Of a stretch of 64,000 nucleotides of DNA, positions 2,206 through 56,265 are shown one piece after another. A program made the translations under genes and the position numbers. The DNA comes from a virus (Duplodnaviria; Caudoviricetes). Numbering within the stretch: the stretch's first letter is position 1; each line of letters begins with the position of its first letter. The DNA lies in the IMG/VR virus record IMGVR_UViG_3300008740_000001, positions 1-64,000 of that record; one strand, given 5' to 3'. The notes under the pieces were generated by a model that had not been told where the DNA came from, searched no databases, and saw nothing but the letters and a program-made list of their open reading frames with translations.

Positions 2206-2382
2206 ATGAAGGCTCTATTAAGAAACATATGTATTCTTGCTACTGGGATTAATCTGCCAATTATTGGATTGTCCGTATATCTAGGGGATCTTAATTTGTT
2301 TCTTCTTTCCGCAGCTTCGGCAACATTGACTTTAACGGGCGCCCTTTTCGTATATTCAGAGGATGATGAAGATGAACTTTAA
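2206..2382 (+). CDS. small membrane protein (58 aa, MKALLRNICILATG...EDDEDEL*)
   Basis: Read by hand; two hydrophobic stretches and an acidic tail. Confidence 0.55.
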   Translation: MKALLRNICILATGINLPIIGLSVYLGDLNLFLLSAASATLTLTGALFVYSEDDEDEL

Positions 2383-4678
2383 CAATTGGCGTGAATTTTT
2401 AGCTGAGGCGAAAGCTCAGCCTGATACCCTTTTAAGAGAAATCTCAGAAGATGAAATGGAGCATATCACAGCGGCGCTGGATGAAATGTCTCCCGAATCT
2501 TGGGCATTCAATGAGCTTTTTGAGGGCAAAAATAGAGTAATTATTGATTTTCCTACCCTCGATCCAAGCTCCGATCTGGGCGGATTCTTATTACTCTTTC
2601 AGAACATGGGTTACGATGTCGATTGGTCTAAGGGGATCTTATCTGGTGAGAAGATTTTCCGAGATACTAGCCCTGCGGGCTTTGTAGATGGTCTTCTGAC
2701 CGGGAGATGGGAAACAGGGAAAACAAAAAAGATAAAAATGAAAGTGGGCAAGTTTTTGGCCACAATATATCGTATGGCCAAGAAGAATTATGAAATTTGG
2801 TTAGAATTATCGCGGAAGGATCCCAATGGCCGCGTCACCGGCAACGATATCTTAAAACATCTGGGAGAAGAAGGTGCACAGAGGTATTATCTCACCAACG
2901 ATCAGCTAAATATGTATTTAGGCGATTTGCCCACTGTCTCTCCCAGATCTGCGCCGGAGTTTTGGAAAAAGAAGGCCCAGTATTGGCAACAAAACGCAGA
3001 TTACATTAAAAATAATTTAGATAATGCCGAAACAGACCAATATTCAATTATTATAACTAGGCACCCTATTGATGTGCTGCGCATGAGCGACTTTAACAAT
3101 ATTCAGTCATGTCATTCGCCGCCTAGTCGCGGTGGAGAAGGCAGCTATTATAAATGTGCCGTCGCAGAGGCCCATGGACACGGCGCTGTAGCTTATGTAG
3201 TTAACACAGCAGAACTGTTAGAACAGACCGATTCTAGTGATATTGGAGAGGCTGAAGGGGTAATTCAAGAAGGTGAAGTGTTCGACGATGAGATAAGAGG
3301 CAGCCATGTGGGAATGGGTATACTTCCCTTGAGCCGTGTAAGACTGCGGCAAATGAGGTATTATGAAGAAGAGAATCCCAAGCGCTGGGATGCCGGCGTT
3401 GAATTAGCAGTACCCGAAAATCGAATTTATGGAGATAATATACCCGGCCTAAAAGACCGAGTAACCAAATGGGCCCAGACAAATCAAGAGAAACAAATCA
3501 AGAATGCGCCAAAAACAGATTCAGGGAAATATAATTTAAGTCTTTTCTATAAATTTGGCGGCTCATATGAAGACAGCGGAAGAGCGGACATTGTGGCAGC
3601 GTTGTTCAACGTTAAGCGCGAAGAGTTGACTGGACATCTTAAGCAGCACACAGAAACAGAAGATAACCTTGATGTTAACCTCGTTGGCGGGGTTATGGAA
3701 CAATACTCTCAACAATGTGAAGAAATAGCTGACGGATGGAATTACAGATACCAAGGTGCTGAAGTTGAATATGAAGTTGAAGATGATGGTGCTGGTTCTG
3801 TTTATATTACCATTGGTGCTTCAATGACAATCAAGTGGTCACTAGATGAGTGGAGTCGTTTTCCAAACCAGAATGAGGTTGAGTGGGCCCTAGGCGAATT
3901 GCGAGATATCGGATGGGGGTTCATAAAGGATTCGTATCCCACATTTCTTAAGAAGCCGGGTATCGGAGATGTCGAGGTACATCTTACGTTCGGGATTGAG
4001 CCGGAACACCTGCCAGATTTCGGCGGCCAAGCATATGCATATGATCCGGATATGTTTGAAGATTTCTGTGTTGAAATCAACAAAGTGGATGATGCATACG
4101 AAGCTATTAAAGGCGAGCTTGAAAGGTTTTTTAAGCGCAATGGAGATATGCAAGGCGGTGCATTTATACAAATGAACTATGATATCGAACAGAAGGATAT
4201 TAGCGCCTACGAGTGGGAAATAGAAAATGATAATAAATGGGATCCCGAAGATGCAACAGAGATCATCGCTTCGACAACTCACTATTTCGACCCAGAAGAA
4301 TATGGAATGGATCCAAGAGTAATGTTCCAAGTTTTGGACTCTCGTGAATATCGCTTAGCTGTAAGAACGGCAATTCTTGCTGGGCCTCGTGAAGAGGTAG
4401 GTACTGAGTATTATCTAGATGTGGACTCGTCTGTCGTGGAGCATGCTGGAGAATTAAAATATACTTTACAGTTTAAAGTATACGAACATCACCCAGATAT
4501 ATTGATAGATCTTCTCAAGGCAGTTATAGAGGATATGGATGACGAGGATGTATTAAATTCGATTTTTACAACAACATTCAAACAGGCACAAAATAGTCGC
4601 TTGCCATCGGGCATGCAAAAGGAATTAAATGAAACAGGGCACGTTGTTAAAAGATGGAAGCAGTTTTTAAGGGGATAA
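2363..4678 (+). CDS. large acidic putative virion/internal protein
   Basis: 771 aa; N-terminal MNFNNWREFLAE leader and C-terminal KRWKQFLRG; likely start 2372. Confidence 0.75.
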   Translation: MMKMNFNNWREFLAEAKAQPDTLLREISEDEMEHITAALDEMSPESWAFNELFEGKNRVIIDFPTLDPSSDLGGFLLLFQNMGYDVDWSKGILSGEKIFRDTSPAGFVDGLLTGRWETGKTKKIKMKVGKFLATIYRMAKKNYEIWLELSRKDPNGRVTGNDILKHLGEEGAQRYYLTNDQLNMYLGDLPTVSPRSAPEFWKKKAQYWQQNADYIKNNLDNAETDQYSIIITRHPIDVLRMSDFNNIQSCHSPPSRGGEGSYYKCAVAEAHGHGAVAYVVNTAELLEQTDSSDIGEAEGVIQEGEVFDDEIRGSHVGMGILPLSRVRLRQMRYYEEENPKRWDAGVELAVPENRIYGDNIPGLKDRVTKWAQTNQEKQIKNAPKTDSGKYNLSLFYKFGGSYEDSGRADIVAALFNVKREELTGHLKQHTETEDNLDVNLVGGVMEQYSQQCEEIADGWNYRYQGAEVEYEVEDDGAGSVYITIGASMTIKWSLDEWSRFPNQNEVEWALGELRDIGWGFIKDSYPTFLKKPGIGDVEVHLTFGIEPEHLPDFGGQAYAYDPDMFEDFCVEINKVDDAYEAIKGELERFFKRNGDMQGGAFIQMNYDIEQKDISAYEWEIENDNKWDPEDATEIIASTTHYFDPEEYGMDPRVMFQVLDSREYRLAVRTAILAGPREEVGTEYYLDVDSSVVEHAGELKYTLQFKVYEHHPDILIDLLKAVIEDMDDEDVLNSIFTTTFKQAQNSRLPSGMQKELNETGHVVKRWKQFLRG

Positions 4679-10846: not shown

Positions 10847-13756
10847 ATGAATCTACAAGATTATAACTTATTGACAAAAGAAGAGATTAGTGAAGTGGTC
10901 CAAGAAGTGTTGGCCGGCGCTGGAATTGTGCAAGAGGCAGACTACCTAGAAAAAGATGGACCCATGTCCAAGAGGCGGAAGCCGACCCCTGTTGACGCAG
11001 AAGAAGAAGGCAATGCCCCGGACAATCCGATGGGGGGCGCGCCAAGGCGGGGAAGTGGAACAAGATATCAGTCGGGGGCGGGATACACGGATAGCAAAGG
11101 GAAGCCGATAGACGCCACTGGCATGCCCAGACCGGATGATGGACAGGCGAAGAAGCCGGCAGCGCAGAGCCAAACTGGCGGTGTCGACACGAAGGCAATG
11201 CCCGGTACGCCGACAAAGCATCCAGAAAGGCCTGCGCCCGACAAAAAGAGGAAAGGCGTGGTAAATCGGGTGCTCGGAGTGGGAGATGACCCTCAATACC
11301 CCCGCCAGCAGGCCCATGCCGCGATGGGTCAAGACGCACAAAATAAAGGTATCTCTTCCGCTACGGCCGACACTCCCTCCGTCGCGGACACCGTGAACCC
11401 CGATAAGTTGAAGAGAGGCGCCCCCGATGCAGTGGCCAAGGCGGGCAGTCAAGAAGATGGCATGCCCGATTCCGGTGCGGAAGGCGACTTTGGCGATATG
11501 AACGACGCATGGTTTGCGCCGGGATCGTCGACTTTGCCTGACAAGGCCGTTAGAACGATTGCCCAGAAGTTTGGCGACAATAGAATGGCTCCTCTGCAGG
11601 TTATCGACTTTTATATCCGCGCTGGACATGGTGATACGGGTGGACGAACCCATATGATGGCTCAGCAAGAACGTGGGATGCAAATCACTCGAATAAAAGG
11701 ATTAATTCAGAAGGCTGCTGCATCTGGCGATTCAGGTCACAAGATGAATGTTAAGAGAGCCCTCGATTCCCTTTTATATGACGCCGCCATGAAAGGCGGT
11801 GGCAGAAGCGACGGGGGTGAAGGTGGCAAAGATGGTAAAGACGGCAAAGATGGTCGCGACGGCAAAGATGGTCGCGACGGCAGAGACGGTACAGACGGCG
11901 GAAACGGCGGCGGTGACGGTGGCGGTGACGGTGGTGGTGAAGTAACGCCTGAGCCACCGCCAGAAGATCCTGATGACCCGGGTGCTGGGCTGCCGATTCC
12001 TGTTAACAAGAAGTGGTCCGGTGAAGAAAGAAAAATGGCCGGCCTTGATAAGAGCGCGGCAGGAAGTCTTGCTAGCCAGCTAGCTAAGCTGTTTCCCGAT
12101 GTTGATAAGAGCATTATTACACAGATTCTTAAAGATGTCGCAGGTCAACTTAAAGCACAGGGTCTTCCCATTCAAGAATCCCTCAGAAAGTTTATTGTAC
12201 AAAGAGTTTTGGAAGAGTACATTGTAAAGAAGACAAAAATTCTTATGGAATTTCAAGACACGACGGGTAAGTATACCGGTGCTGCTGCCGGCGAAGAGTC
12301 GCCGGGAGGTGGCGGTGATGAGAAAGAAGAAGCCGCTGTTAAAAAGCTCAGTGTGTACCTGAAGAAAAATAAAGAGTTTTACGAAAATGTGGAATTGGTT
12401 CTCAGCGCTAGTGACGATATTGATGATTTAGTCTCCAATGCAAAGGACAATCTAGAACTTCCGGAGGTTACTCTTGAAGAAGGTCTCAAGAAGGATCTGA
12501 AGAAATGGATCGAAAGAGGACGTTTTGGACAGGCTAGCCGAGAGTTGCTTACTAGATTGCAAAAGGCTAAGAAATATATTGCGCACGAATTGGCCAAGGT
12601 TGAAAAGTATATTGCTGCTGATAAAGATGCATCTCGACAAAAAGAAGATGTAAAGACGGCTATGGAGAAATTTCTCAACTTGTTCAAGGGTGGTCAGGAA
12701 GTACTTGACGCGTATAGTGATAGGGATCAGGAGCCCGAGGAAACAACCGAAGAGCCACCCGAGGAACCACGAGAACCACAAGAATTAAGTGGCGACGTTG
12801 TTCTCGACGCACTCATGGCACGGCTGAAAGAGTTGGACCTTGATTCTGATGATGGTATGTACCAAGCTACACAACCGGGCAACGAACAGGCGTATCTTGG
12901 CGGCTATATGTTTTATAAGGCAATGCTTAAACTTCAAAAGGCACTTACAAAGAATCCAAATGCGTCTACACAAGAATTGATTGGTCTCGTTCAGAAAGAA
13001 CTTGGCGGAAATGAACATGGTTCTGGAAGTCCTTACTCTCCGAAGAGAAAGGGGGCTGTTGGTGTAAGTGCCGATCAGCGGCGCGCCACTAAATATGGCC
13101 CGGGCCCGGTTAACGAAGCCATGCTTCTTGAAAGGGTTGAGGCCATTATCGAACGTGCGGCCGGATTATTCCTTATTAATCTTTTAAAGGAAGCAGTATT
13201 ACTGACCGAGCAAGAAGGTGAGGGTGGCGATATCATGAAGTGGCTTGAAGACACTATTGCCAAGTTCAAGAGCTATCAGTTAGATGATTCCAGTCGCGCT
13301 GTGAAAGCATCAAGGGCGGCTAGGGGCGCCAAGGATCCCAAGGATCTTTCAGAGCCCCAAGGAGACGAAAGCGCAGAAGATGTGGTTAAGAGAGTGGCTG
13401 CTGATGTAAAAGCCGGCAAGGCAACAAAAGCAGATCTTGCAGCCGCCAGACAAAAGGCTAAGGCCGGCGGAGATGAAACGGCGCGCCGAAGCGGGCAAGC
13501 TGGTACAATTAATATGAAGTCTGTTGTCGGGCCTCGACTCAAGCAGGGTGGACTGGCTCTAAAGAACCCAGACGGAAGCCCGGGCCCCGGGGCCAAATTG
13601 CAAAAGAAGATGGGTAAAGTTATTCGTCGATTCATTAACAAGCAATTGAAAAGAATGGGCAAAACTGATATTAAGGTCATTGCAGAAAGTAAAGTACTTC
13701 AGACAGAACTGAGGAAAGTTGTTGTGAAACACCTTAAAGAATATGAACTTCTATAA
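10847..13756 (+). CDS. large low-complexity putative head/internal protein with collagen-like repeat
   Basis: 969 aa; Gly/Pro/Asp-rich; (GxD)8 repeat; many (L/I/V)-x-E motifs. Confidence 0.75.
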   Translation: MNLQDYNLLTKEEISEVVQEVLAGAGIVQEADYLEKDGPMSKRRKPTPVDAEEEGNAPDNPMGGAPRRGSGTRYQSGAGYTDSKGKPIDATGMPRPDDGQAKKPAAQSQTGGVDTKAMPGTPTKHPERPAPDKKRKGVVNRVLGVGDDPQYPRQQAHAAMGQDAQNKGISSATADTPSVADTVNPDKLKRGAPDAVAKAGSQEDGMPDSGAEGDFGDMNDAWFAPGSSTLPDKAVRTIAQKFGDNRMAPLQVIDFYIRAGHGDTGGRTHMMAQQERGMQITRIKGLIQKAAASGDSGHKMNVKRALDSLLYDAAMKGGGRSDGGEGGKDGKDGKDGRDGKDGRDGRDGTDGGNGGGDGGGDGGGEVTPEPPPEDPDDPGAGLPIPVNKKWSGEERKMAGLDKSAAGSLASQLAKLFPDVDKSIITQILKDVAGQLKAQGLPIQESLRKFIVQRVLEEYIVKKTKILMEFQDTTGKYTGAAAGEESPGGGGDEKEEAAVKKLSVYLKKNKEFYENVELVLSASDDIDDLVSNAKDNLELPEVTLEEGLKKDLKKWIERGRFGQASRELLTRLQKAKKYIAHELAKVEKYIAADKDASRQKEDVKTAMEKFLNLFKGGQEVLDAYSDRDQEPEETTEEPPEEPREPQELSGDVVLDALMARLKELDLDSDDGMYQATQPGNEQAYLGGYMFYKAMLKLQKALTKNPNASTQELIGLVQKELGGNEHGSGSPYSPKRKGAVGVSADQRRATKYGPGPVNEAMLLERVEAIIERAAGLFLINLLKEAVLLTEQEGEGGDIMKWLEDTIAKFKSYQLDDSSRAVKASRAARGAKDPKDLSEPQGDESAEDVVKRVAADVKAGKATKADLAAARQKAKAGGDETARRSGQAGTINMKSVVGPRLKQGGLALKNPDGSPGPGAKLQKKMGKVIRRFINKQLKRMGKTDIKVIAESKVLQTELRKVVVKHLKEYELL
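11825..11896 (+). repeat. collagen-like 9-bp tandem repeat, GKDGKDGKDGRDGKDGRDGRDGTD
   Basis: Eight G-X-D triplets followed by a Gly-rich run. Confidence 0.9.
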
Positions 13757-14966: not shown

Positions 14967-17297
14967 ATGCGTCGATTATTACTTGAAGGCGGTGTTGCAG
15001 GCCACCTGTCACATTTGTATGACAACCGCGAATTAACTGCTAACCAAATGTTTAAGATTCTGTCTCTCGCGTCTCAAGGCGAACTAGAGGGTACAGAGAA
15101 AACTGATGGATACAATATTTATCTAGGTTTCAGAGACGGCCAAGCTCGTTGGGCGCGCAACAAAGGTGATATGCGCAGCGGTGGTCGGACTATGGAAGAA
15201 CTGATTAACCGTATATTTCAAGGTGGCGAACAAGTAAAAGACGTGTATGTACGCGCATTTAAAGGATTTGAGGACTTTGCCAACAAGTTAGGGCAACGTG
15301 TCCAAGCAAATATCTTTGGCGAAGATGGATCCATTTTCTACAACACAGAAATTCAAGGTCCGGGCGCGAACAACGTTGTTAATTACGATGCAAATGTTGT
15401 GTCGATTCATCACGGGAACCATAAGAGATATGATGCTGAAACCGATACTGTAGAAATTATCGATGCGGAAGAAAATTCTAGATATCTCGATCATGCTTTA
15501 AACCGAATTGAGCAAGAAGCTCACGAGCAGAACTTTACTGTTAAACGCACCGCCGTATTAAAGTTGCGTCGTCTTGACGATGACACCGATTTGCGTATTG
15601 CTATAGCCAAGATCGAAAAAACTGGCTTTATAGGGGATATGACCATCAACGAATACCTTGAATCTAAAATTCTCCCAAAAATTCAACAGAAGGTGCCGTA
15701 CATGGATAGTAACGTGCATCAAATGATGGTCGACTATATTCTAGATAAGCGAAATGAGGCTGGTCAAAAGACGGTCAGTATGAGATCTATTTACAAAGGC
15801 TTCCCAGTCGAGCAACGTGATGTGGTGCGGAATCTGTTAAGTACCGGCGGGACTTTAATCAAGGCTGCAATCTGGCCTATTGAAGATGCAATTCACGATT
15901 TTGCAGTAGAGCTTTTAAGGGGCCTAGAGAGCGTTTACATCCTCGATAATCACGCAGAGGTAACCAGACTCAAAGCTGAGGTGGACGCCGCTGTGAGGGC
16001 TATACAGGCCTACTCTGGGCCGGGTGCGGATGAAGCTCGTAATGTGTTGCAGCACCAGCTGAGAAAAGTCAAGCACTTGGATAATATTAACTCTGCTGTC
16101 GAGGGATTTGTGTTCCACCATGGCGGTCAGATGTATAAATTCACAGGTAACTTTGCACCAGTTAATCAAATCTTGGGGTTGTTCCGATATGGACGTGGAA
16201 ATGTTCCTGCAATCTCACGGGACAATCTTGACGCCGACGACGGTGGAGAGCTTGAAGAAGCAGAAGTTGTTTCTCACGCCACCCCAGAGCGTGTAATTGC
16301 TATCTTGCCGGGCGCTTTTAAGCCTCCGCACAAAGGCCACTTTCAGATGGCCCTACATTATGCCGAGATTGCCGATGCAGTTGCGGTGTATATTAGTAGA
16401 ATTCCCAGAGAGGGCGTGGACTTTGGAACATCGAAGGCGCTGTGGGACATTTATATACAAGCCTCTCAAAATCCAGCAGCTAGCAAAATCGCAGTACTGC
16501 CAGAGCCCTCCGAAAATGCATCCCCTGTAGGAGCAGCCTTAGAGTTCGTTGGAAACGAAAGCCAAAGCCCAAACTTGGCTCAGCCGGGTGATTATGTAAT
16601 TTTGGGCGCCAGTTCAAAACCAGATTCAAAGGGTAACCCAGATTATATGCGATTTAAAGATGCACAAAAGTATTATGCGCACGGAGTACTGGGTGGAGAT
16701 CTGGAAGATACCAAGAAATATGCCTTTAAGGTCTCCGAAGAGCCATTAAGTGCACGAGATCTTAGAGCAGCCATCAGCAGAGGGGACATTGAAATCATTA
16801 AACGCTATATTCCAGACGGAGTGCTGCGACATGAAGGTGGTTTTGAGTCGGTTCTTGATCTGTTAGATGTTACGGTCGCACCGGTGGAAACTTTAGAAGA
16901 AATGCTTATTCGGATGGTTGAAGAGCGTTTAAACGAGATCAGCGAAGCTGTCGGTGATGATAGCGCTGGATGGCCAACAGTGCCTCCTACTCGATCCAAG
17001 GGGACGCCATGTATCAAATATAGTCGACAAGGCACCCAGATGCTTTATAAAGGCGATGAGGGCTACGAGGAATGTGTGAGCGAGAAAGAATTAGAAGAAA
17101 TAAGCGCGATGGGCGGCGGTGCAGTCCAAGGCGCGATGATAAGTACCGGTACCGGCAACGGTGCATGGGATGGGGCCGCAACTAAGAAGTTTAATAAGAA
17201 GCAAAAGAAAGATCAAAAGCTCAAAGGAACAAAACTTACCAAAGAGGCGCTAATTGAAAAAGTAATGGACTATTTACTAACACAGGCGGTAAACTAA
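14967..17297 (+). CDS. fusion of a ligase-like (KxDG) domain and an HxGH cytidylyltransferase-like domain
   Basis: GHLSHLYD...TEKTDGYN in the N-half; PGAFKPPHKGH in the C-half. Confidence 0.75.
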   Translation: MRRLLLEGGVAGHLSHLYDNRELTANQMFKILSLASQGELEGTEKTDGYNIYLGFRDGQARWARNKGDMRSGGRTMEELINRIFQGGEQVKDVYVRAFKGFEDFANKLGQRVQANIFGEDGSIFYNTEIQGPGANNVVNYDANVVSIHHGNHKRYDAETDTVEIIDAEENSRYLDHALNRIEQEAHEQNFTVKRTAVLKLRRLDDDTDLRIAIAKIEKTGFIGDMTINEYLESKILPKIQQKVPYMDSNVHQMMVDYILDKRNEAGQKTVSMRSIYKGFPVEQRDVVRNLLSTGGTLIKAAIWPIEDAIHDFAVELLRGLESVYILDNHAEVTRLKAEVDAAVRAIQAYSGPGADEARNVLQHQLRKVKHLDNINSAVEGFVFHHGGQMYKFTGNFAPVNQILGLFRYGRGNVPAISRDNLDADDGGELEEAEVVSHATPERVIAILPGAFKPPHKGHFQMALHYAEIADAVAVYISRIPREGVDFGTSKALWDIYIQASQNPAASKIAVLPEPSENASPVGAALEFVGNESQSPNLAQPGDYVILGASSKPDSKGNPDYMRFKDAQKYYAHGVLGGDLEDTKKYAFKVSEEPLSARDLRAAISRGDIEIIKRYIPDGVLRHEGGFESVLDLLDVTVAPVETLEEMLIRMVEERLNEISEAVGDDSAGWPTVPPTRSKGTPCIKYSRQGTQMLYKGDEGYEECVSEKELEEISAMGGGAVQGAMISTGTGNGAWDGAATKKFNKKQKKDQKLKGTKLTKEALIEKVMDYLLTQAVN

Positions 17298-19314: not shown

Positions 19315-19557
19315 ATGTGGCAGTTTTGGAAATGGAATGGAAGATATATTCAGGGCGATTTGGTAAGTAAACACAAAACCAAAACTGCTGCAATTTCAAA
19401 AGCAAAAAAGGAATTGGGAAACGACGTAATATTTACAGAGAGTACATGGAAAAAAGAAGAAGTTATTTGGATAGATAGCAAAACCCATACTCCCATGGGG
19501 ATTATTTGTAAATCAACGGGGGCGAAACGGTCTCGACAGGGTAAGAAAGGAGTATAA
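19315..19557 (+). CDS. small basic hypothetical protein; 3' end overlaps tmRNA
   Basis: 80-aa ORF; last 40 nt lie inside the tmRNA 5' end. Confidence 0.55.
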   Translation: MWQFWKWNGRYIQGDLVSKHKTKTAAISKAKKELGNDVIFTESTWKKEEVIWIDSKTHTPMGIICKSTGAKRSRQGKKGV

Positions 19558-19938
19558 GAGTGCAAGTGGTCTAACGAAACAGAAGACCCTAAATTCAGTT
19601 TCAAAAAACATAATTGCCAATAACAATTATTATTTCGAAGAAAGCCGCTTAGCGGCCTAATCGGCGGGGTTGTCAATGACCTTGTTTCCCAACATTGAAT
19701 AACAGGCGGAGTCCTGCGAAAACAAAAAACCACAATGGAGACCTCGGCTTTATGAAAACATCTTCGGATGGACTACCTCACTAAATGTGAGAAAGGTGAG
19801 TGGGGCGCAACAGGTCAGTAAGCGCCGGAGGACGACTGACTATCTTTGTTAATTTGTGATAGTAAATTGACTAAACTTGTGAACGACTTGATACTGGACT
19901 TATTTTGGACGCGGGTTCGACTCCCGCCGCCTCCACCA
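19518..19938 (+). ncRNA. ssrA: tmRNA, tag (A)ANNNYYFEESRLAA*
   Basis: 5' GGGGGCGAAACGGUCUCGAC; 3' GCGGGUUCGACUCCCGCCGCCUCCACCA; G3-U70 pair; tag frame 19616-19660 ending LAA-stop. Confidence 0.95.
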
Positions 19939-21221: not shown

Positions 21222-21401
21222 GAAGACGGAATATACGGTAGCCACAGTACATCTGTACGGTTTACTATTCTGCGTAGCCTGTATCTATTCTCTATTAGAA
21301 TGGTATGGCGGTGTTCGAAGAAAATGGGAAAATCGCTTGAACAATAAAAAAAATACTGATATAATTAATGTAGACTTTGAAGAAGTCACAAAGGAATAAA
21401 A

Positions 21402-21671
21402 ATGGAAGAAACTACAAATAACGACTCTCCACAATTTTATATTACGGCAGTTAGAAAAGGTGAAGCAGAAAACGAGATCTTGGTAGACTATCAATTGACT
21501 GATGAGTTCAAGCAGTGGTACAAAACCAAAAATAATCTCAAGCGCTGGTCCCGAAAGCGTTTTGAAAACGAGCTAACTGAAATGGTAAAATTGAAAATGG
21601 CCCAAGACATTGGCTCAATTGAGACCGTTCCAGAACCCCCTACTCCGGATTCTGAAAATGAATCCGAATAG
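21402..21671 (+). CDS. hypothetical protein
   Basis: 89-aa ORF with AAGGA SD. Confidence 0.7.
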   Translation: MEETTNNDSPQFYITAVRKGEAENEILVDYQLTDEFKQWYKTKNNLKRWSRKRFENELTEMVKLKMAQDIGSIETVPEPPTPDSENESE

Positions 21672-21933
21672 TACAGTAGAACAGAAGCGTTGGAAACAAG
21701 TGGGCAGACTTGTTAATAGTTATGAAGAAGCCCGGGCCATCGCAGAAGATACGATTAAGCGCTTGACCACTGAAGACGATATCCCCGGAGTCGAAATTAA
21801 AATCAAGCGCTGCGGCCCAGCAGGTACCCGCTTCAAGATTAAAGTATGGTACCCTGCTTTGGCGCCAAAGAAGAAAAAGAAAAATGAAAAAGCAAAAAAG
21901 AGAAATAAGACATCAGCCAGTTCCGGTAGATAG
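21658..21933 (+). CDS. basic hypothetical protein
   Basis: Start moved to MNPNS (21658); Lys-rich tail. Confidence 0.6.
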   Translation: MNPNSTVEQKRWKQVGRLVNSYEEARAIAEDTIKRLTTEDDIPGVEIKIKRCGPAGTRFKIKVWYPALAPKKKKKNEKAKKRNKTSASSGR

Positions 21934-22063
21934 CCCCAAGTGTATTGATATTTGGTCATTGCCCGAAACTGAGGATATTACTGAAGAGTTTAATGTAACT
22001 TTGGAAGAAATTAAAACAACTTATGATATCCCAACTGACGAGATCAAGAAAGTCCGAAATTAA
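21884..22063 (+). CDS. small hypothetical protein (59 aa, MKKQKREIRHQP...)
   Basis: Read by hand; fills the gap up to the tRNA promoter. Confidence 0.5.
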   Translation: MKKQKREIRHQPVPVDSPKCIDIWSLPETEDITEEFNVTLEEIKTTYDIPTDEIKKVRN

Positions 22064-22075
22064 TAAAAAAAGAGC

Positions 22076-22104
22076 TTGACTCACAGCGTTAAATACGTTA
22101 TATT
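22076..22104 (+). promoter_or_regulatory. sigma70-type promoter of the tRNA-Lys/large RNA unit
   Basis: TTGACT(22076-81)-N17-TATATT(22099-104). Confidence 0.85.
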
Positions 22105-22123
22105 AATAATGTAAGGAAGCTTT

Positions 22124-22200
22124 GGGTCTATAGCTCAACAGCGTAGAGCAACGGACTTTTAATCCGTAGGTTCTGGGTTCAAGTCCCAGTAGACCCACCA
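22124..22200 (+). tRNA. tRNA-Lys(UUU)
   Basis: Cloverleaf; loop CU-UUU-AA; encoded CCA. Confidence 0.95.
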
Positions 22201-22219
22201 TCATCGATTCTTTGAAATT

Positions 22220-22862
22220 TTAGATAGACCCTAGTTCTCGGGTCTCAAAACCTGAATGGAAATACCGACCTTCAGGCACCGGCGAAAGCTAGTGATAGAG
22301 AAAACTTCGCTTAGGAACGGGATGTTCTTACATCCTATGGGTGCCGCCTAACTAAGAGAGGGAATGAGTTAAGGAGGGTGGTACTTCCGAAAATCATTTA
22401 GTAGTTCAACGCGTGAGCTTTCATACCACTGAAAGAATACTGCTGAGAATATCCACGGATTTGTAGGTTCATCGTGGAAACGGGATTAAGGCACATCCAA
22501 GAAAGGCTTGGGAAGGAGGAATAAACGCCTCTAGAATCTAACTGTCGGTGACAGAAGACTCTCTGATGGAATTGGAAACAAGACCATCGTCCCGAAAGGG
22601 GTCATGTGGACATCCTCCCAAGGTTTGGAAATATGACGCGCAACGGCGAGGTGAAGTGTACAGCTTACTCAAAGGAACGCAGAATGTCATGGCGATAGTA
22701 GGGCGTGCTGTTCCGTGGTCTTTGCAGATCAAGAACAGGGAGAAAGTTTGTGAACGGCGTTACTTGCCGGTGTGCTTACCTCTCACGCGAAATGCGGACA
22801 GGCTCAAAAGGCTTGAGGGTCACAAATGAGGAACAAAGAAGTGCTAAGTGTTCCACCTTTTT
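22220..22862 (+). ncRNA. large ornate structured ncRNA candidate (GOLLD/ROOL-like size and context)
   Basis: More than 12 hairpins, several GAAA tetraloops, loop GUGGUA(22378-83) complementary to UACCAC(22424-29); directly downstream of tRNA-Lys; no credible CDS. Confidence 0.75.
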
Positions 22863-22874
22863 AAGAGAAACAAC

Positions 22875-23114
22875 ATGCAAGAAAACTATGACAAACATTT
22901 GGTTACTACAATCGCAAGTGGACTGGTTAAAACAACTTTATGCCTTTGTAGTACCGCATTAGGATGCATGTGGTTATCAAATTGTGCTTTAGACGAAGAT
23001 TTAATTATCAGTTGCGAAGAATCTTGTAGTGGCATAGGGAGTCACATGGAATCAGTTACTAGCAGAAAATGTATATGTACAGCCCCAACCAATGACATAT
23101 GGGTTTTACCTTAA
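22875..23114 (+). CDS. Cys-rich small membrane-anchored protein
   Basis: Start set at MQENY; hydrophobic segment then CEESC...CIC. Confidence 0.55.
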   Translation: MQENYDKHLVTTIASGLVKTTLCLCSTALGCMWLSNCALDEDLIISCEESCSGIGSHMESVTSRKCICTAPTNDIWVLP

Positions 23115-23123
23115 TGAACTTAT

Positions 23124-23218
23124 GGGGCTGTAGCCAAGTGGTTAAGGCAGCCGGCTTATATCCGGTTTAGCGTCTGATAAACGCGAGATCGTGGGTTCGA
23201 ACCCCACCAGCCCTACCA
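23124..23218 (+). tRNA. tRNA with UAU anticodon (Ile/AUA) and long variable arm
   Basis: GGGGCUG/CAGCCCU acceptor, A73, CCA; anticodon loop CU-UAU-AU (23155-61); 24-nt variable region; canonical T arm. Confidence 0.9.
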
Positions 23219-23237
23219 TTTTAAAACAAAGGAAACA

Positions 23238-24056
23238 ATGACAGTTAAAAACATTATATTATTTGATATGGACGGTACTCTTACCGAGCCTAGACAGATT
23301 ATTGATCAGAATATGATTGATACTCTTGCTCAAGTCACTCGCAGTGGCCACGACGTGGGCATTGTTACTGGCAGTCCGATGAATTATATGGAAGAACAAA
23401 TAGGCCCACTCTTAAGTGCGCAGTATAGTGAGATCGATAGATACCACCTTCTTCCATGTAACGGTATAGAATATACCTTTTGGGAAAATGGGATTTCAAA
23501 CGCCACAGTTGGTAATACTATGGCAGAAGAATTGGGCACTTCAAACTTCCAGAATTTAATGGCGGCTCTTGTCCACCTTCAAGCAGAAGTATCTAAAACT
23601 ATGTTGGATCGCGGCCTCTCCTTAACAGGAAATTTCATTCAGTATAGGGGTGGCCTGATTAATTGGTGCCCCATCGGCCGAAACGCAACCCAACCCCAGC
23701 GCGCCGCGTTTGTAAACTTTGACCAAACGACAAACTTTCGAAATGAATATTGTCGCTTGATCAAGAAGTGGCTTAGCTGGGCCGGCTTGGAAGATAAAAT
23801 GACAGTTGTTAAGGGTGGATCCACCTCTTTTGACATATATCCAGCCGGCTGGGACAAAACTTACGCTCTGACATGGTTCGGAGATTACGAATGTTGGTTC
23901 GTTGGTGATAAATGCCACCCCGGCGGCAACGATCAACAAATTTATGAGCTTTTACAGAAGAACGGAAAAGCTTTTGAGACCACGGGACCTAATCAAACTA
24001 TTGAAATTATTGACAATATCTTGAACACCCTAGGCCCCGATAGCTCAGCAGGATAG
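23238..24056 (+). CDS. phosphomannomutase, eukaryote-type HAD-IIB (PF03332-like)
   Basis: FDMDGTLT, INWCPIGRN, SFDIYPAGWDKTYAL, FVGDK...GGND. Confidence 0.9.
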   Translation: MTVKNIILFDMDGTLTEPRQIIDQNMIDTLAQVTRSGHDVGIVTGSPMNYMEEQIGPLLSAQYSEIDRYHLLPCNGIEYTFWENGISNATVGNTMAEELGTSNFQNLMAALVHLQAEVSKTMLDRGLSLTGNFIQYRGGLINWCPIGRNATQPQRAAFVNFDQTTNFRNEYCRLIKKWLSWAGLEDKMTVVKGGSTSFDIYPAGWDKTYALTWFGDYECWFVGDKCHPGGNDQQIYELLQKNGKAFETTGPNQTIEIIDNILNTLGPDSSAG

Positions 24057-26965: not shown

Positions 26966-28312
26966 ATGAAAAAGAAAAATTATATTATAGACACTAGTGT
27001 CTTTTTAACAAATGCCGAAGCAATTTTTGACTTTGGACGTAACGACATCGTTATACCACTTAAAGTTTTAGAAGAAGTGGATAAACACAAAAAACGTCAA
27101 GATGGCGTAGGTGCCCAAGCAAGGAAATTTATCAGAATTCTAGATGGCCTCCGCGAAAAGGGGTCGCTCCATTCTGGTGTACGCATCCAGAAAGGGCTGG
27201 GCTTGGCGTGCACAAGAAGTATTAAGGATACAGATCTCAGTTTATTGCCAAGAGACCTCAATTCTAAAATACCGGATCATATTATAATTGCTACCGCACT
27301 GATGGTCGCGAAAGAGGATCCAACAAGAAAGACAATAATGGTTTCCCGCGACATTAATCTTCGGGTTATCTGTGACGCCGTTGGTCTGGATGCACAAGAC
27401 TATATTGCTACCAAAGCGGTCGAAAGCTTGGAAAAGCTGTATACCGGCTTTGATACTTACTTGGTTGATGATCAAACAATTGATCAGTTTTATGCTGGTG
27501 ATAATGTGTTTGTTGACGATGAGGATCTTAATGGCGGCAAATTTTATCCAAACCAGTATTTGATGTTAGTTTCAAATGCAAATGAGAAAAAGACAGCTTT
27601 AGCCAAATACCAAAGTCCCCAAGGGCCATTAAAAAAGCTAGTTCATGATCATTTGCCCACATTTGGCATCCGATCCAGAAACAAAGAACAGGCCTTTGCA
27701 ATTGATCTGTTATTAAATCCAGAGGTAGAGGTTGTTACGCTGATTGGTAAAGCCGGCTCAGGGAAGACGCTTTGTGCCCTTGCTGCAGGCTTAGAACAGG
27801 TTATGGGGCACAAGAATTCAAAAGAAGACTCATTGTATACGAGAATGGTTGTCTCTCGTCCAATTATGCCTATGGGCCGCGACATCGGCTTCCTGCCGGG
27901 CTCAATGGAGGAGAAGATGCATCCATGGCTCATGCCTATCCAAGATAACCTACAACTTTTGATGGGTAACGACAAAGTAATGTTAGAACAATACATGGAA
28001 AAGGGAAAAATAGAGATTGAGGCATTAACTTATATTAGGGGACGTTCAATTTCAAAAGCCTTCATAATTATTGATGAGGCGCAGAACTTGACTGCGCACG
28101 AAATTAAAACCATCATTACGCGTGCTGGTGAGGGCACGAAGATCGTCTTGACTGGGGATATAGAACAGATCGACAACGCTTATACCGATGAGACCTCAAA
28201 CGGTCTAGCTTATGCTATCGAGAAATTTAAGCACTATGATTTATCGGGACATATCACCTTGCGAAAAGGAGAGCGCTCTAAAGTTGCCACACTTGCTGCT
28301 AAAATACTATAA
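26966..28312 (+). CDS. phoH: PhoH-family ATPase with N-terminal PIN domain (PhoH2/YlaK-like)
   Basis: YIIDTSV PIN start; GKAGSGKT Walker A; IIDEAQN; YIRGRS. Confidence 0.92.
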   Translation: MKKKNYIIDTSVFLTNAEAIFDFGRNDIVIPLKVLEEVDKHKKRQDGVGAQARKFIRILDGLREKGSLHSGVRIQKGLGLACTRSIKDTDLSLLPRDLNSKIPDHIIIATALMVAKEDPTRKTIMVSRDINLRVICDAVGLDAQDYIATKAVESLEKLYTGFDTYLVDDQTIDQFYAGDNVFVDDEDLNGGKFYPNQYLMLVSNANEKKTALAKYQSPQGPLKKLVHDHLPTFGIRSRNKEQAFAIDLLLNPEVEVVTLIGKAGSGKTLCALAAGLEQVMGHKNSKEDSLYTRMVVSRPIMPMGRDIGFLPGSMEEKMHPWLMPIQDNLQLLMGNDKVMLEQYMEKGKIEIEALTYIRGRSISKAFIIIDEAQNLTAHEIKTIITRAGEGTKIVLTGDIEQIDNAYTDETSNGLAYAIEKFKHYDLSGHITLRKGERSKVATLAAKIL

Positions 28313-53517: not shown

Positions 53518-53798
53518 AACTAGATGACTACATTACTGAAGTAATTGATAACATCCGCGAAGATCGAGAAGTTACTAAAGAACTTCTAAACGACGCGATC
53601 AATTATATGAGCAATAAGACCGACGCTCACGAGTCAGTTGGTCAAATTGCGGCAAAGTATGTAGAAACGCTCCAGCGTTCAAACGAGCAACTGGTGAAGA
53701 TCACTGGATTGCTGCACAAACGAGAGCAGGGCACCGAAGGGCTGACCGAAGAAGATAAGAAAGCCGTGTTCGATATGATCAGCGCGGGAGAGGTATAA
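53514..53798 (+). CDS. helical hypothetical protein
   Basis: Start set at MKLDDY (ATGA overlap). Confidence 0.7.
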   Translation: MKLDDYITEVIDNIREDREVTKELLNDAINYMSNKTDAHESVGQIAAKYVETLQRSNEQLVKITGLLHKREQGTEGLTEEDKKAVFDMISAGEV

Positions 53799-55201
53799 TG
53801 ACAACAGAAGATCGATATTTACCCGGCACTCTAAACCCCGAGGCTATGAAGATCTCGGCGGATCATTATGAATTTCCAGCTTCTACAGATAATACAGACT
53901 TCTTTCCAAGGTTTCACGAATCGATCCTCAAGGGGGCAGCCCCTGACAGTTTTAAAGGCGTTAGTAGATATAAGGGCATGGTGATTTCCCAGCCAACCAA
54001 GGAAGTGGTAGGCGGAGGCTGGTTTAAAAAAGGAAAGCCCAGATATAGTTTCAGAGTGAGAATTCCAGAACTACACAGTGCTATACAGGATCCTTGCTCT
54101 ATTGCTCCCGATGGAGGTACTGGTGCAAACCTTGAAGACTCGCAGAGAAAGCTTGTGTGTATGCACCCGATGGCCATTACCGCAAACGATAATGAGAATG
54201 GTGATACTTTGCCGGAACCTAGCTTGGGCGATATAGTCTGGATTGAGTTCGAAAAAGGGCCCTCTGGGGGCCGCATGGGCTCACCAATTTATGTTGGCCG
54301 TTTTAGTAAAGGTGCCGGCACAAACGGCCTAAGTGATGCGTGTTCTTCTTTAGCAAACCTTAATTGGGACGGCTCTACGCTTGGTGGAAACGGCTATGCG
54401 CCTGCCGGCGGCTACCCCGGGGATCCATCTTCGTGGCCAGTTAGTGAAGGCGCACAGCATATAACAGACGAAGCGGCGGAAGATCTGCACGAAGTGGCCA
54501 GAACTTATTACGAAGAACACGGGTTTGATTGGCGTACTAATCCGTCAGAGCTTAACATTATGGGAATGAGAAACACAAACACACAAACAAACAACTCTTT
54601 CGATGATAAGATGATATGCATGTATACTGATGACGCCGGCGCTCAATATGTAGACGTGTGGCCCTGCACCACCCGCCCGGGCCGGTCTTCTATGACTGGT
54701 GCCGGAGGCTATGGGATTGCGATTTTGATTCCGTCTGCGGCCCAGTATCATTCGGATGATCCGTCATTACATCCCGACAGCAGAAAGATCCCAAGCGCCG
54801 GCCAAAAGTCATATGATCTTGGCCGAGGCGGGTCGAACAAAGAAGAAAGAGGCCGGCCAGATCGATCCGATCCGGGTCAGGCATATCGTGATAGCAACAA
54901 TGATGATGTGTTCAACTATGATCCCAACACAATTGGAGGGTGCATTCAATGTCAGCTTCATGATACATCTCCGGGCAGATCGATGAGCAAAGGGGTTGAC
55001 GGCTACTCAGAGGGATGCCAAGTTTGGGGCCAATACGAGGATTTTCAGTTTTTCTTGTCTCTATGGAAGAAGCAGATAGCTGTAGGGGTGTCTGATCTTG
55101 ATTACGTTCTTATCAACGCAGAAGACTTGAGCGAGTTGTGGAGCACAACGACATCTTCAACGGCCACTGACGAGCCACAAGCAGGAGATCCGGTAGAGTA
55201 A
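53798..55201 (+). CDS. baseplate hub protein: gp5/Vgr OB-fold-like N-half plus L,D-transpeptidase-like C-half
   Basis: RVRIPEL...PSLGDIVWIEFE...PIYVG; C-half QLH...YSEGCQV (His/Cys). Confidence 0.7.
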   Translation: MTTEDRYLPGTLNPEAMKISADHYEFPASTDNTDFFPRFHESILKGAAPDSFKGVSRYKGMVISQPTKEVVGGGWFKKGKPRYSFRVRIPELHSAIQDPCSIAPDGGTGANLEDSQRKLVCMHPMAITANDNENGDTLPEPSLGDIVWIEFEKGPSGGRMGSPIYVGRFSKGAGTNGLSDACSSLANLNWDGSTLGGNGYAPAGGYPGDPSSWPVSEGAQHITDEAAEDLHEVARTYYEEHGFDWRTNPSELNIMGMRNTNTQTNNSFDDKMICMYTDDAGAQYVDVWPCTTRPGRSSMTGAGGYGIAILIPSAAQYHSDDPSLHPDSRKIPSAGQKSYDLGRGGSNKEERGRPDRSDPGQAYRDSNNDDVFNYDPNTIGGCIQCQLHDTSPGRSMSKGVDGYSEGCQVWGQYEDFQFFLSLWKKQIAVGVSDLDYVLINAEDLSELWSTTTSSTATDEPQAGDPVE

Positions 55202-55212
55202 TGAGGAATTAA

Positions 55213-56265
55213 ATGGGACTTTGGAGCAAAGGCCGCGATAAAGGTCGTGAACAAAAAAACATAGACCCCGAAAAGGCAAAAAAGCTAGAAGAGATTAAGT
55301 CGGGCGAAGGCTCCTTTACAGAGGAGGGCGCCCAAGCACGTAAGCGAGTTGTAGGCGGCATTGGTTGTGACACAATCATCGAGCCCGTGCCAGAATTCGA
55401 CCGTGCACCCTGTGAGACGGTGATGCACGGAGAGAACAATCAATGGATTGTTTTAGGCAGAGATCGTCCTGCGAACCGCGCTAGCGGTTATGGTGGAGCC
55501 GGCCATACTCACTGCGGAATGGTTGATATTGTTGTTGGTAGGGCATCTAGTAAGAATAACGGTCTTAAGGCCGCCGGCCCAAGTGACGAAGATGTTGTAG
55601 GAAACAACTGGTTCAACGACGCAGCTAGAATTTATATTAGTGCTAAGACTGATATTGATAAGAACTTGGGCCTCTCTCGTGGCACCTTGGGGAATAAGAA
55701 GGCGCAGTCTGGCATCGCGCTTAAAGCGGATCAGGTCCGCATCGTTGGTCGCGGCGGAATCAAGATTGTAACAGGAAAGGCTCAAAATGTTAAGGTTGGT
55801 GCCGGCGGAGAAAAGCTTTCTAATGGGGCCAAGGAAATTACACCATCCCCTATCATTGAGCTTATTGCGGGAAATCAAGACGGCTCTTCAAGACACTTCT
55901 CTATCGACAAAGGCTTTTTTACAGTTAACAATGTCCAACCGGCCGTTTTAGGAGAAAATTTGATAGAAGCCATGACCGAACTGATTGATTTAGTAAATCA
56001 GCTTCAGGGCGCCGTTACAAATTTTGCAACTCAGCAGACTATTTTTAACGGCGTGGCGGCTGTACATACTCATCCAGTTGTTCTGGCGTATACAACACCT
56101 TCTCCCGAGATGGCATCGACGGGTATCAACAATCTAATCAAAATGGCGACAGATGTCCATATACCTCTCTTTTCACAAAAGGTTAACACTATGTTATATG
56201 AAATGAACTATTTACAGCCATTCGGAATGAACTATATTAATAGCCGGAGCGTTAGGATCACCTAG
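55213..56265 (+). CDS. baseplate spike-like protein
   Basis: Beta-repeat-like ALKADQVRIVGR...IKIVTG; C-terminal HTHP metal-binding tip; position in tail module. Confidence 0.6.
   Translation: MGLWSKGRDKGREQKNIDPEKAKKLEEIKSGEGSFTEEGAQARKRVVGGIGCDTIIEPVPEFDRAPCETVMHGENNQWIVLGRDRPANRASGYGGAGHTHCGMVDIVVGRASSKNNGLKAAGPSDEDVVGNNWFNDAARIYISAKTDIDKNLGLSRGTLGNKKAQSGIALKADQVRIVGRGGIKIVTGKAQNVKVGAGGEKLSNGAKEITPSPIIELIAGNQDGSSRHFSIDKGFFTVNNVQPAVLGENLIEAMTELIDLVNQLQGAVTNFATQQTIFNGVAAVHTHPVVLAYTTPSPEMASTGINNLIKMATDVHIPLFSQKVNTMLYEMNYLQPFGMNYINSRSVRIT

Follow-up and report, generated by a model that had tools for sequence, protein, structure and literature searches.

A large, structured non-coding RNA is encoded at positions 22208..22862 (+ strand) of the first 64,000 nucleotides of IMG/VR record IMGVR_UViG_3300008740_000001 (Duplodnaviria; Caudoviricetes), a complete viral record of 203,859 bp with terminal repeats; this 64-kb stretch is referred to as the window, and all positions are numbered from its first nucleotide. 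The RNA extends from a conserved 5' UUCUUUGAAA motif to the U-run behind a 3' hairpin, and comparison with full-length homologs has confirmed it as a real, discrete gene for a structured non-coding RNA. Judged by sequence and predicted fold, it is best filed as a new class among the large, ornate phage RNAs, the third of the GOLLD/ROOL kind. The best explanation of the observations as a whole, to which a probability of about 0.72 is assigned, is an uncatalogued, single-copy, pseudoknot-rich RNA family whose members would act in trans as a folded particle that possibly self-associates.

The RNA locus and its family

The conserved 5' motif of the RNA follows tRNA-Lys(UUU) (22124..22200, + strand; recognized by ARAGORN and by the Rfam model, 74.2 bits) after a spacer of 7 nucleotides. 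Between this tRNA and a 79-amino acid open reading frame (ORF) at 22875-23114, which starts 13 nucleotides past the U-run, lie approximately 655 nucleotides in which all frames are closed, with 10-12 stops in each forward frame. The initial annotation, made from the letters of the window, had drawn attention to a non-coding stretch of ~640 nucleotides behind tRNA-Lys that is richer in G+C than its flanks and ends in a hairpin and T run at 22830-22862, and the locus is as it was described: G+C is 0.44-0.50 in the RNA stretch versus 0.38-0.43 in the flanks. The single sequence also folds better than shuffled versions of it (z-scores of -2.45 and -1.96 for the + and - strands, respectively). No ORF is conserved in the family (the longest ORFs, on either strand, have a median of 78 amino acids), and its alignment has no three-base periodicity of conservation and indels that are not multiples of three.

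Homologs were collected with exact-match search patterns taken from the conserved blocks of a first pairwise alignment of two RNA copies; the hairpin CGUCCC-GAAA-GGGG (22589..22602, + strand), with its GNRA loop and columns that are invariant in 90 sequences, was the search motif that retrieved the family. Matches were obtained in 10 and then 26 viral contigs, in at least 120 marine metagenome records and in two contigs of metagenome-assembled genomes (MAGs). An nhmmer profile search recovered at least 148 homologous stretches, of which at least 118 are full length; these comprise 105 unique sequences and, after collapsing at ≥96% identity, 90 non-redundant members, whose sequence-based MAFFT alignment (A1) is the basis of the family counts given throughout. 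The 90 members are 634-708 nucleotides long, with a G+C content of 0.42-0.60 and a median pairwise identity of 65%, and the nearest relative of the window copy among the matches listed is ~84% identical. A looser motif (TGCTGTTY..GAACAGRGAG) yielded 101 new loci, mostly chance matches, with five true ones; two of these five, L215 and L275, form a divergent subgroup at 54% identity and were held out, taking no part in the derivation of the fold or the pseudoknots.

All sources of the family are marine viral and metagenome contigs. The two MAG contigs, L182 (PBIO01000025.1) and L183 (NHDW01000006.1), are filed under Halobacteriovorax sp. and Methylococcaceae TMED69, respectively, and are probably phage DNA mis-binned with bacteria. 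A blastn search of four diverse members against 50,697 GenBank phage records gave no match, and a neighboring HAD/PMM-like protein used as bait found no relatives. A search based on the PhoH2 protein of the window phage led to 34 loci, only one of which (L007) carries the RNA, in this case immediately upstream of PhoH, so that the RNA is not syntenic.

Nested fold and pseudoknots

RNAalifold applied to A1 gave 177 nested pairs in 38 helices. Over all cells of the alignment these pairs are 95.1% canonical, versus 42-45% in controls with the 3' partner slid 1-3 columns along, and double (compensatory) changes occur in 125 nested pairs versus 59-76 in the slid controls. Mutual information with average product correction (MI-APC) placed 74 of the 140 strongest pairs inside the nested fold, and among the remaining top pairs those that are canonical and strongly covarying form additional antiparallel runs that cross it. 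The RNA strand is the + strand, as deduced from the canonical share of the pairs (95.1% on + versus 83.3% on -) and from the cells that distinguish the two strands (2036 G-U versus 183 A-C). Taken together, the comparative data predict a fold of about 30 helices that are linked by at least seven long-range Watson-Crick contacts. Conservation extends beyond the helices: 102 of the 659 window positions are invariant and 224 (about one third) are conserved at ≥90%, many of them unpaired, and the invariant blocks are spread over positions 23 to 637 of the RNA. Invariant junction nucleotides include GAAGNCUCUCUG, GCAGAA, CGUGCUGUUCCGUG and AGAACAGGGAG.

Most of the helices that had been proposed from the single sequence are borne out by compensatory changes in the 90 homologs. 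At the 5' end, hairpin P1 (GACCC/GGGUC; 22227..22302 when its pseudoknot PK1 is included, + strand) is followed by hairpin P2 (CCUGAAUGG/CCUUCAGG; 22251..22276, + strand), which contains the predicted CCUGAA/UUCAGG pairing and has compensatory changes in 8/8 pairs; UUAGG/CCUAA, GGAUG/CAUCC, GGAGG/CUUCC, CCACGG/UCGUGG and the GAUGG..CCAUC helix with its GNRA loop are supported in the same way, as are GUCAU/AUGAC (7/7 pairs covary), CGGC/GCCG, CAGGC/GCUUG and the 3' hairpin. The last of these (GGAAC/GUUCC followed by the U-run, 22830..22862, + strand) is both a structural element of the fold and an intrinsic terminator. The central domain (22541..22699) is closed by two long-range helices on the + strand, P14 (22541-47/22693-99; 99.2% canonical, 4 covarying pairs) and P15 (22549-53/22685-89; 98.4% canonical, 5 covarying pairs). 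A local CUGUC/GACAG hairpin that had been assigned to 22542-54 is 92% canonical, yet it competes with the better supported P14 and P15 and may be an alternative conformer. Of the smaller hairpins, GGC-GAAA-GCU is retained in a subgroup, with 2 covarying pairs, but does not extend to the family as a whole (73% canonical), and CCC-GAAA-GGG offers no test of covariation because it is invariant. A local CCAAG/CUUGG hairpin was not upheld, being 52% canonical and without covariation; the CUUGGGA segment is instead paired in PK5.

The runs that cross the nested fold define seven pseudoknots or kissing helices on the + strand, PK1 to PK7. In the 90 members, canonical pairing amounts to 96.5-99.8% across these helices, and one to four pairs of each covary. 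In PK1, UUCUC in the loop of P1 (22235-39) pairs with GAGAA (22298-302) in the near-invariant UAGAGAAAAC block (97.3% canonical, 3 covarying pairs), and in PK2 the hairpin loop UUCUUA (22325-30) pairs with the junction UAAGAG (22353-58; 98% canonical, 4 covarying pairs). PK3, a kissing interaction of neighboring hairpin loops between GUGGUA (22378-83) and UACCAC (22424-29), is the one pseudoknot that the initial annotation had recognized; it is 96.5% canonical with covariation, the alignment including the variants GUGACA/UGUCAC, GUGGAA/UUCCGC and GUGAUA/UAUCAC. PK4 joins the loop UAGGUUC (22464-70) of hairpin 22452-78 to the junction GAAUCUA (22534-40; 99.8% canonical, 4 covarying), while PK5 joins the junction CUUGGGA (22507-13) to the hairpin loop UCCCAAG (22616-22; 98.7% canonical, 4 covarying pairs). 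The almost invariant PK6, formed by NCUCUC (22558-63) and GGGAGN (22738-43), is 98.3% canonical, and its N:N pair (22558:22743) covaries, with a double change in 31 sequences. The 3' terminal hairpin is drawn into the fold by PK7, in which GUGCUU (22772-77) pairs with AAGUGC (22839-44) of the hairpin loop (98.7% canonical; three of its pairs covary, with 32-47 double changes). A weaker eighth contact of three pairs, PK8, is formed on the + strand by AAG (22503-05) and CUU (22763-65), the latter being part of the loop of hairpin 22755-69; its pairs are 82-100% canonical, with double changes in 22-35 sequences each.

In the held-out loci L215 and L275, PK1, 2, 4, 5, 6 and 7 are kept perfectly, mostly through compensatory substitutions. 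The versions found there are CUGCC/GGCAG for PK1, UUCACA/UGUGAG for PK2, UGUAUUC/GAAUACA for PK4, CUCAGGG/UCCUGAG for PK5, CCUCUC/GGGAGG for PK6 and GUGUGU/ACAUAC for PK7. The central proposal of the initial annotation, a large and ornate non-coding RNA, has thus been substantiated: the element is conserved and covarying in 90 homologs, and members that were withheld from the derivation agree with it.

One further loop is of interest. A 7-nucleotide hairpin loop contains the palindrome UGUACA (22657..22662, + strand), a candidate symmetric intermolecular contact. A 6-nucleotide palindrome (UGUACA, UAGCUA or GCUAGC) occupies this loop in 76/90 members, versus ~17% expected by chance, and no palindrome enrichment was found in the other loops of the 90 members.

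Transcription, carriers and genomic context

A sigma-70-type promoter, TTGACT-17-TATATT, with 10/12 matches to the consensus, lies upstream of tRNA-Lys at 22076..22104 (+ strand), and no other promoter-like site was found on the + strand between it and the RNA. Because the only upstream promoter precedes the tRNA, tRNA-Lys and the RNA are most likely parts of one transcript, which is in keeping with the co-transcription that had been suggested for the two; the tRNA-island context also recurs in relatives. The RNA would be transcribed from this promoter and released by normal processing of the tRNA end. Relatives without an adjacent tRNA have a strong sigma-70-type promoter of their own (TTGACA, TTGAACA or TTGTACA, N17, TATAAT-like) at a median of 18 nucleotides before the conserved 5' motif. 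The strict pattern TTGNMM-N16-18-TANNNT occurs within 80 nucleotides upstream of 37/76 loci, versus 0 control windows placed 400 nucleotides further upstream, and a run of at least 4 T near the 3' end, behind the 3' hairpin, is present in 81/86 members; in several of these a second, likewise canonical terminator follows. In about half of the relatives, the RNA would be transcribed from its own sigma-70-type promoter and end at the hairpin plus U-run. Sigma-70-type promoters in T4-like phages point to early expression, and the RNA would probably be made early.

Sequencing runs bear on expression. Two DNA runs contain 97-100% of the sampled words of the 1.2-kb stretch around the RNA, and nine RNA-library runs contain parts of it. 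Contigs from four metatranscriptomes, which belong to three studies, covered only 22210-22776 when placed on 21400-23800, with none on the flanking genes and no cover beyond 22776; starts near 22243-22246 are shared. Each of these runs includes an error-free contig of 147-285 nucleotides, along with many that are 90-95% alike with typical family sequence. This is moderate evidence that RNA of family members occurs at levels above those of their neighbors.

The carriers are mostly uncultured marine jumbo phages of the T4-like type. A T4-type major capsid protein and portal are encoded in the window's record, and a T4-type capsid gene is present in 4/6 records checked; one of those without it is a 317-kb record that is 94% complete. 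A single RNA copy per genome was found in 6/6 records checked. The complete 293-kb jumbo phage IMGVR_UViG_3300007513_000001, another carrier of the RNA, encodes two full-length T4-type Gp23 capsid proteins (open frames of 640 and 631 amino acids) in tandem at 176509-180120.

The distribution of the RNA among relatives is patchy, and its position with respect to tRNAs varies. Fourteen of the 90 loci lie no more than 61 nucleotides behind a tRNA on the same strand, in ~45% tRNAs are encoded no more than a few kb away, nearly always on the same strand, and at L126 and L179 tRNAs abut both ends of the RNA with essentially no spacer. In the window, the 79-amino acid ORF stands between the RNA and an unusual tRNA-Ile(UAU) of 95 nucleotides with a long variable arm (23124-23218). 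In L002, the closest PhoH2 relative that has both tRNAs (78% identity), tRNA-Lys and tRNA-Ile are 9 nucleotides apart and the RNA and 79-amino acid ORF are absent, so that the RNA and the small ORF behave as an insertion; the tRNA-Ile counterpart in this relative is 76 nucleotides long, versus 95 in the window. No constant protein partner was found among the neighbors of the 90 loci, the best being an FKBP-like protein in 17/90, on either side of the RNA. The 79-amino acid ORF has no Pfam or PHROG match, and PHROGs likewise gave no match for seven window proteins, which include the two small ORFs beside the RNA.

Elsewhere in the window, a transfer-messenger RNA (tmRNA) with the tag ANNNYYFEESRLAA is encoded at 19518-19938 (120 bits) and followed directly by a tRNA-Gly; tmRNAs with similar ANNN...LAA tags are also present in many of the relatives found via PhoH2. 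The PhoH2 gene itself (26966-28312) encodes a PIN-PhoH fusion with 54-78% identity to proteins in 34 marine viral contigs; it is <40% identical to that of any cultured phage and is a useful marker of this uncultured lineage. Five large ORFs (350-969 amino acids; at 2363-4678, 10847-13756, 14967-17297, 53798-56265) belong to no PHROG family at E<=1e-5.

Possible function and relation to known RNAs

GOLLD and ROOL are giant RNAs of phage tRNA islands, and both form RNA-only cages (Kretsch et al. 2025, PMC12286853). GOLLD assembles as a D7 14-mer and pulls down ribosomes, and in both RNAs some of the "tertiary" pairs predicted from covariation were found to link separate copies (Kretsch et al. 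2025, PMC12286853). Being separately transcribed and terminated, conserved, densely pseudoknotted and rich in invariant unpaired nucleotides, the present RNA would, like these two, act in trans as a stable, compactly folded particle. Its probable role during infection would be to help the phage take over translation or tRNA metabolism, or to counter host defence. Palindromic loops are classic sites of symmetric dimerization, and copies of the RNA might associate through the loop at 22657-62, with some of the apparent pseudoknots possibly being contacts between copies. It is this loop, together with the inter-copy pairs of ROOL and GOLLD, that makes self-association the preferred, if unproven, mechanism by which the RNA may act.

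Several considerations weigh against the interpretation as an uncatalogued family of trans-acting, possibly self-associating particles. The fold was derived, and its pairs were counted, on the same alignment with no R-scape statistic, a circularity that the slid controls and held-out members mitigate. The data on expression are assembled contigs, which give no strand, ends or amounts and might include carried-over DNA, and the runs they come from were selected because they contain the sequence. Multimerization is an analogy with GOLLD and ROOL, the function is proposed from sequence, and the palindrome signal represents only two or three independent sequence states. Finally, absence from Rfam, INPHARED and the searchable literature is no proof of a first description. 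The family is not described in the literature that could be searched, although the 8,495 unnamed IMG/VR candidates of Fremin et al. 2023 (PMC10690425) may include parts of it.

A more specific proposal is that the RNA is a third, structurally unrelated self-assembling RNA multimer, a dimer or closed cage held together by the loop at 22657-62 and by some of the covarying pseudoknots acting as contacts between copies, or else represents a new class of ribozyme with the pseudoknotted core as its active site. In this more specific form the proposal is speculative, with the odds leaning against it.

The main rivals to the RNA-only particle are a complex with host factors, of which the RNA would be core or decoy, and a new ribozyme. 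The former, somewhat improbable, would have the RNA function as part of a ribonucleoprotein, or as a decoy for a host factor, for example the ribosome, an RNase or a defence nuclease that targets tRNA. Phage tRNA islands may serve to withstand host attacks on tRNA, a setting in which a decoy might be at home; the pull-down of ribosomes by GOLLD is a precedent, and invariant hairpins such as CGUCCC-GAAA-GGGG are candidate protein sites. Against a dedicated phage-encoded partner stands the lack of any constantly linked protein gene, the FKBP-like protein being present at 17/90 loci only, although a host partner would be invisible in the sequence. That the RNA is a ribozyme, which would process itself or act on tRNA, tmRNA or another RNA, is rated slightly lower and is thus unlikely. 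The conserved unpaired nucleotides would then constitute the active site, and the 102 invariant positions, many of them in junctions, the dense pseudoknotted core, the adjoining tRNAs and the tmRNA encoded by carrier phages are all compatible with this. No known ribozyme model matches the RNA, however, neither a conserved flanking substrate nor splice-junction continuity was found, and GOLLD, ROOL and OLE are similarly conserved with no known catalysis.

That the RNA is a divergent member of GOLLD or ROOL is very improbable. The initial annotation had left this open, offering either divergent membership or a new class, and it is the new class that survives. When the window was searched with Rfam 15 at gathering thresholds and at E<=10, the RNA was unmatched: matches above threshold were tRNAs and the separate tmRNA only, and the sole match in the RNA region at E<=10 was U3, at chance level. 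Models for group I and II introns, RNase P, tmRNA, 6S, SRP and small self-cleavers in Rfam do not match the RNA, and cmscan with lax filters (E<=1) on eight further diverse members named no family, which makes nine members in which such a scan found nothing. In the whole 203,859-bp genome, neither the GOLLD model RF02032 (416 positions; 25 scored candidates) nor the ROOL model RF03087 (574 positions; 7 scored candidates) has a match at E<=10, the respective Rfam gathering thresholds being 150 and 99.1 bits. A likeness to GOLLD that had been suggested for the CUCAAAAG loop and the GUGGUA pseudoknot could not be substantiated.

What the family shares with GOLLD and ROOL is the niche. Like the present RNA, GOLLD is giant, encoded by phages and prophages, often located beside tRNAs, represented by marine members (a marine GOLLD sits downstream of tRNA-Met; Kretsch et al. 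2025, PMC12286853), and endowed with many pseudoknots and GNRA loops; all three RNAs may be described as phage-encoded elements of 600-800 nucleotides beside tRNAs. GOLLD is, however, often >800 nucleotides long versus 634-708 for the present family, and its 3' domain is universally conserved and its 5' domain less so, whereas conservation here is spread over the whole length with no concentration in a 3' domain. No tRNA is embedded in the RNA of the present family, unlike GOLLD, and the 14-mer cage of GOLLD has been seen experimentally, while assembly of the present RNA is a proposal. ROOL, at ~580 nucleotides, is of similar size; it is abundant, phage- or prophage-encoded near tRNA islands, has several pseudoknots and no known protein partner, and the likeness is one of kind, not of homology. 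ROOL is a nanocage, and the palindromic loop is the only hint of self-association in the present RNA. The habitats also differ: ROOL is found in rumen and Firmicutes phages, and the present RNA in marine T4-like jumbo phages.

Other comparisons are more remote. T4 itself produces two stable non-tRNA species, RNAs C and D (species 1 and 2), that are co-transcribed with and processed from its tRNA cluster, but at ~120-140 nucleotides and with a simple structure they provide only a distant analogy, and a relation in sequence is not expected. OLE and raiA resemble the present RNA in being large, with extensive covariation and many invariant unpaired nucleotides, and OLE dimerizes. They are, however, chromosomal genes of Firmicutes and Actinobacteria without a link to tRNAs, proteins take part in the action of OLE, and their models do not match the present RNA.

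The remaining alternatives are poorly supported, and the RNA is probably not an mRNA, leader or intron. A mobile element, an intron remnant or a protein gene in another genetic code is together given a very small probability. The patchy distribution, and the position of RNA and small ORF between tRNAs that are 9 nucleotides apart in the nearest relatives, would suit an element that moves, but the family has its own promoters and terminators, no interrupted gene, flanking repeats or associated recombinase was seen, no intron model matches, and no case was seen in which precise removal restores an uninterrupted gene or tRNA; a hidden protein gene, in this or an alternative code, was rejected with six frames closed, indels not in threes and no codon periodicity. 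Least credible is a cis-acting leader, untranslated region or attenuator for the 79-amino acid ORF or the tRNAs, since the proximity of the ORF to the U-run has to be set against downstream genes that vary by locus, an intervening terminator, tRNAs that abut both ends in some loci, and nearest relatives without both RNA and ORF.

Few RNAs known from bacteria or phages match this one in size and complexity. The present family, abundant in ocean viral and metatranscriptome data and equipped with early-type promoters of its own, can now be studied through an alignment of >100 diverse sequences, and window positions 22201-22865 represent a well-defined construct, with a monomer mass of about 215 kDa, for structural, probing and activity work. 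It also offers an independent case in which ideas on the function of GOLLD and ROOL, namely tRNA or ribosome handling, counter-defence and encapsulation, can be tested. With a third, unrelated class in the same niche, it would seem that large phages have invented giant folded RNAs repeatedly.

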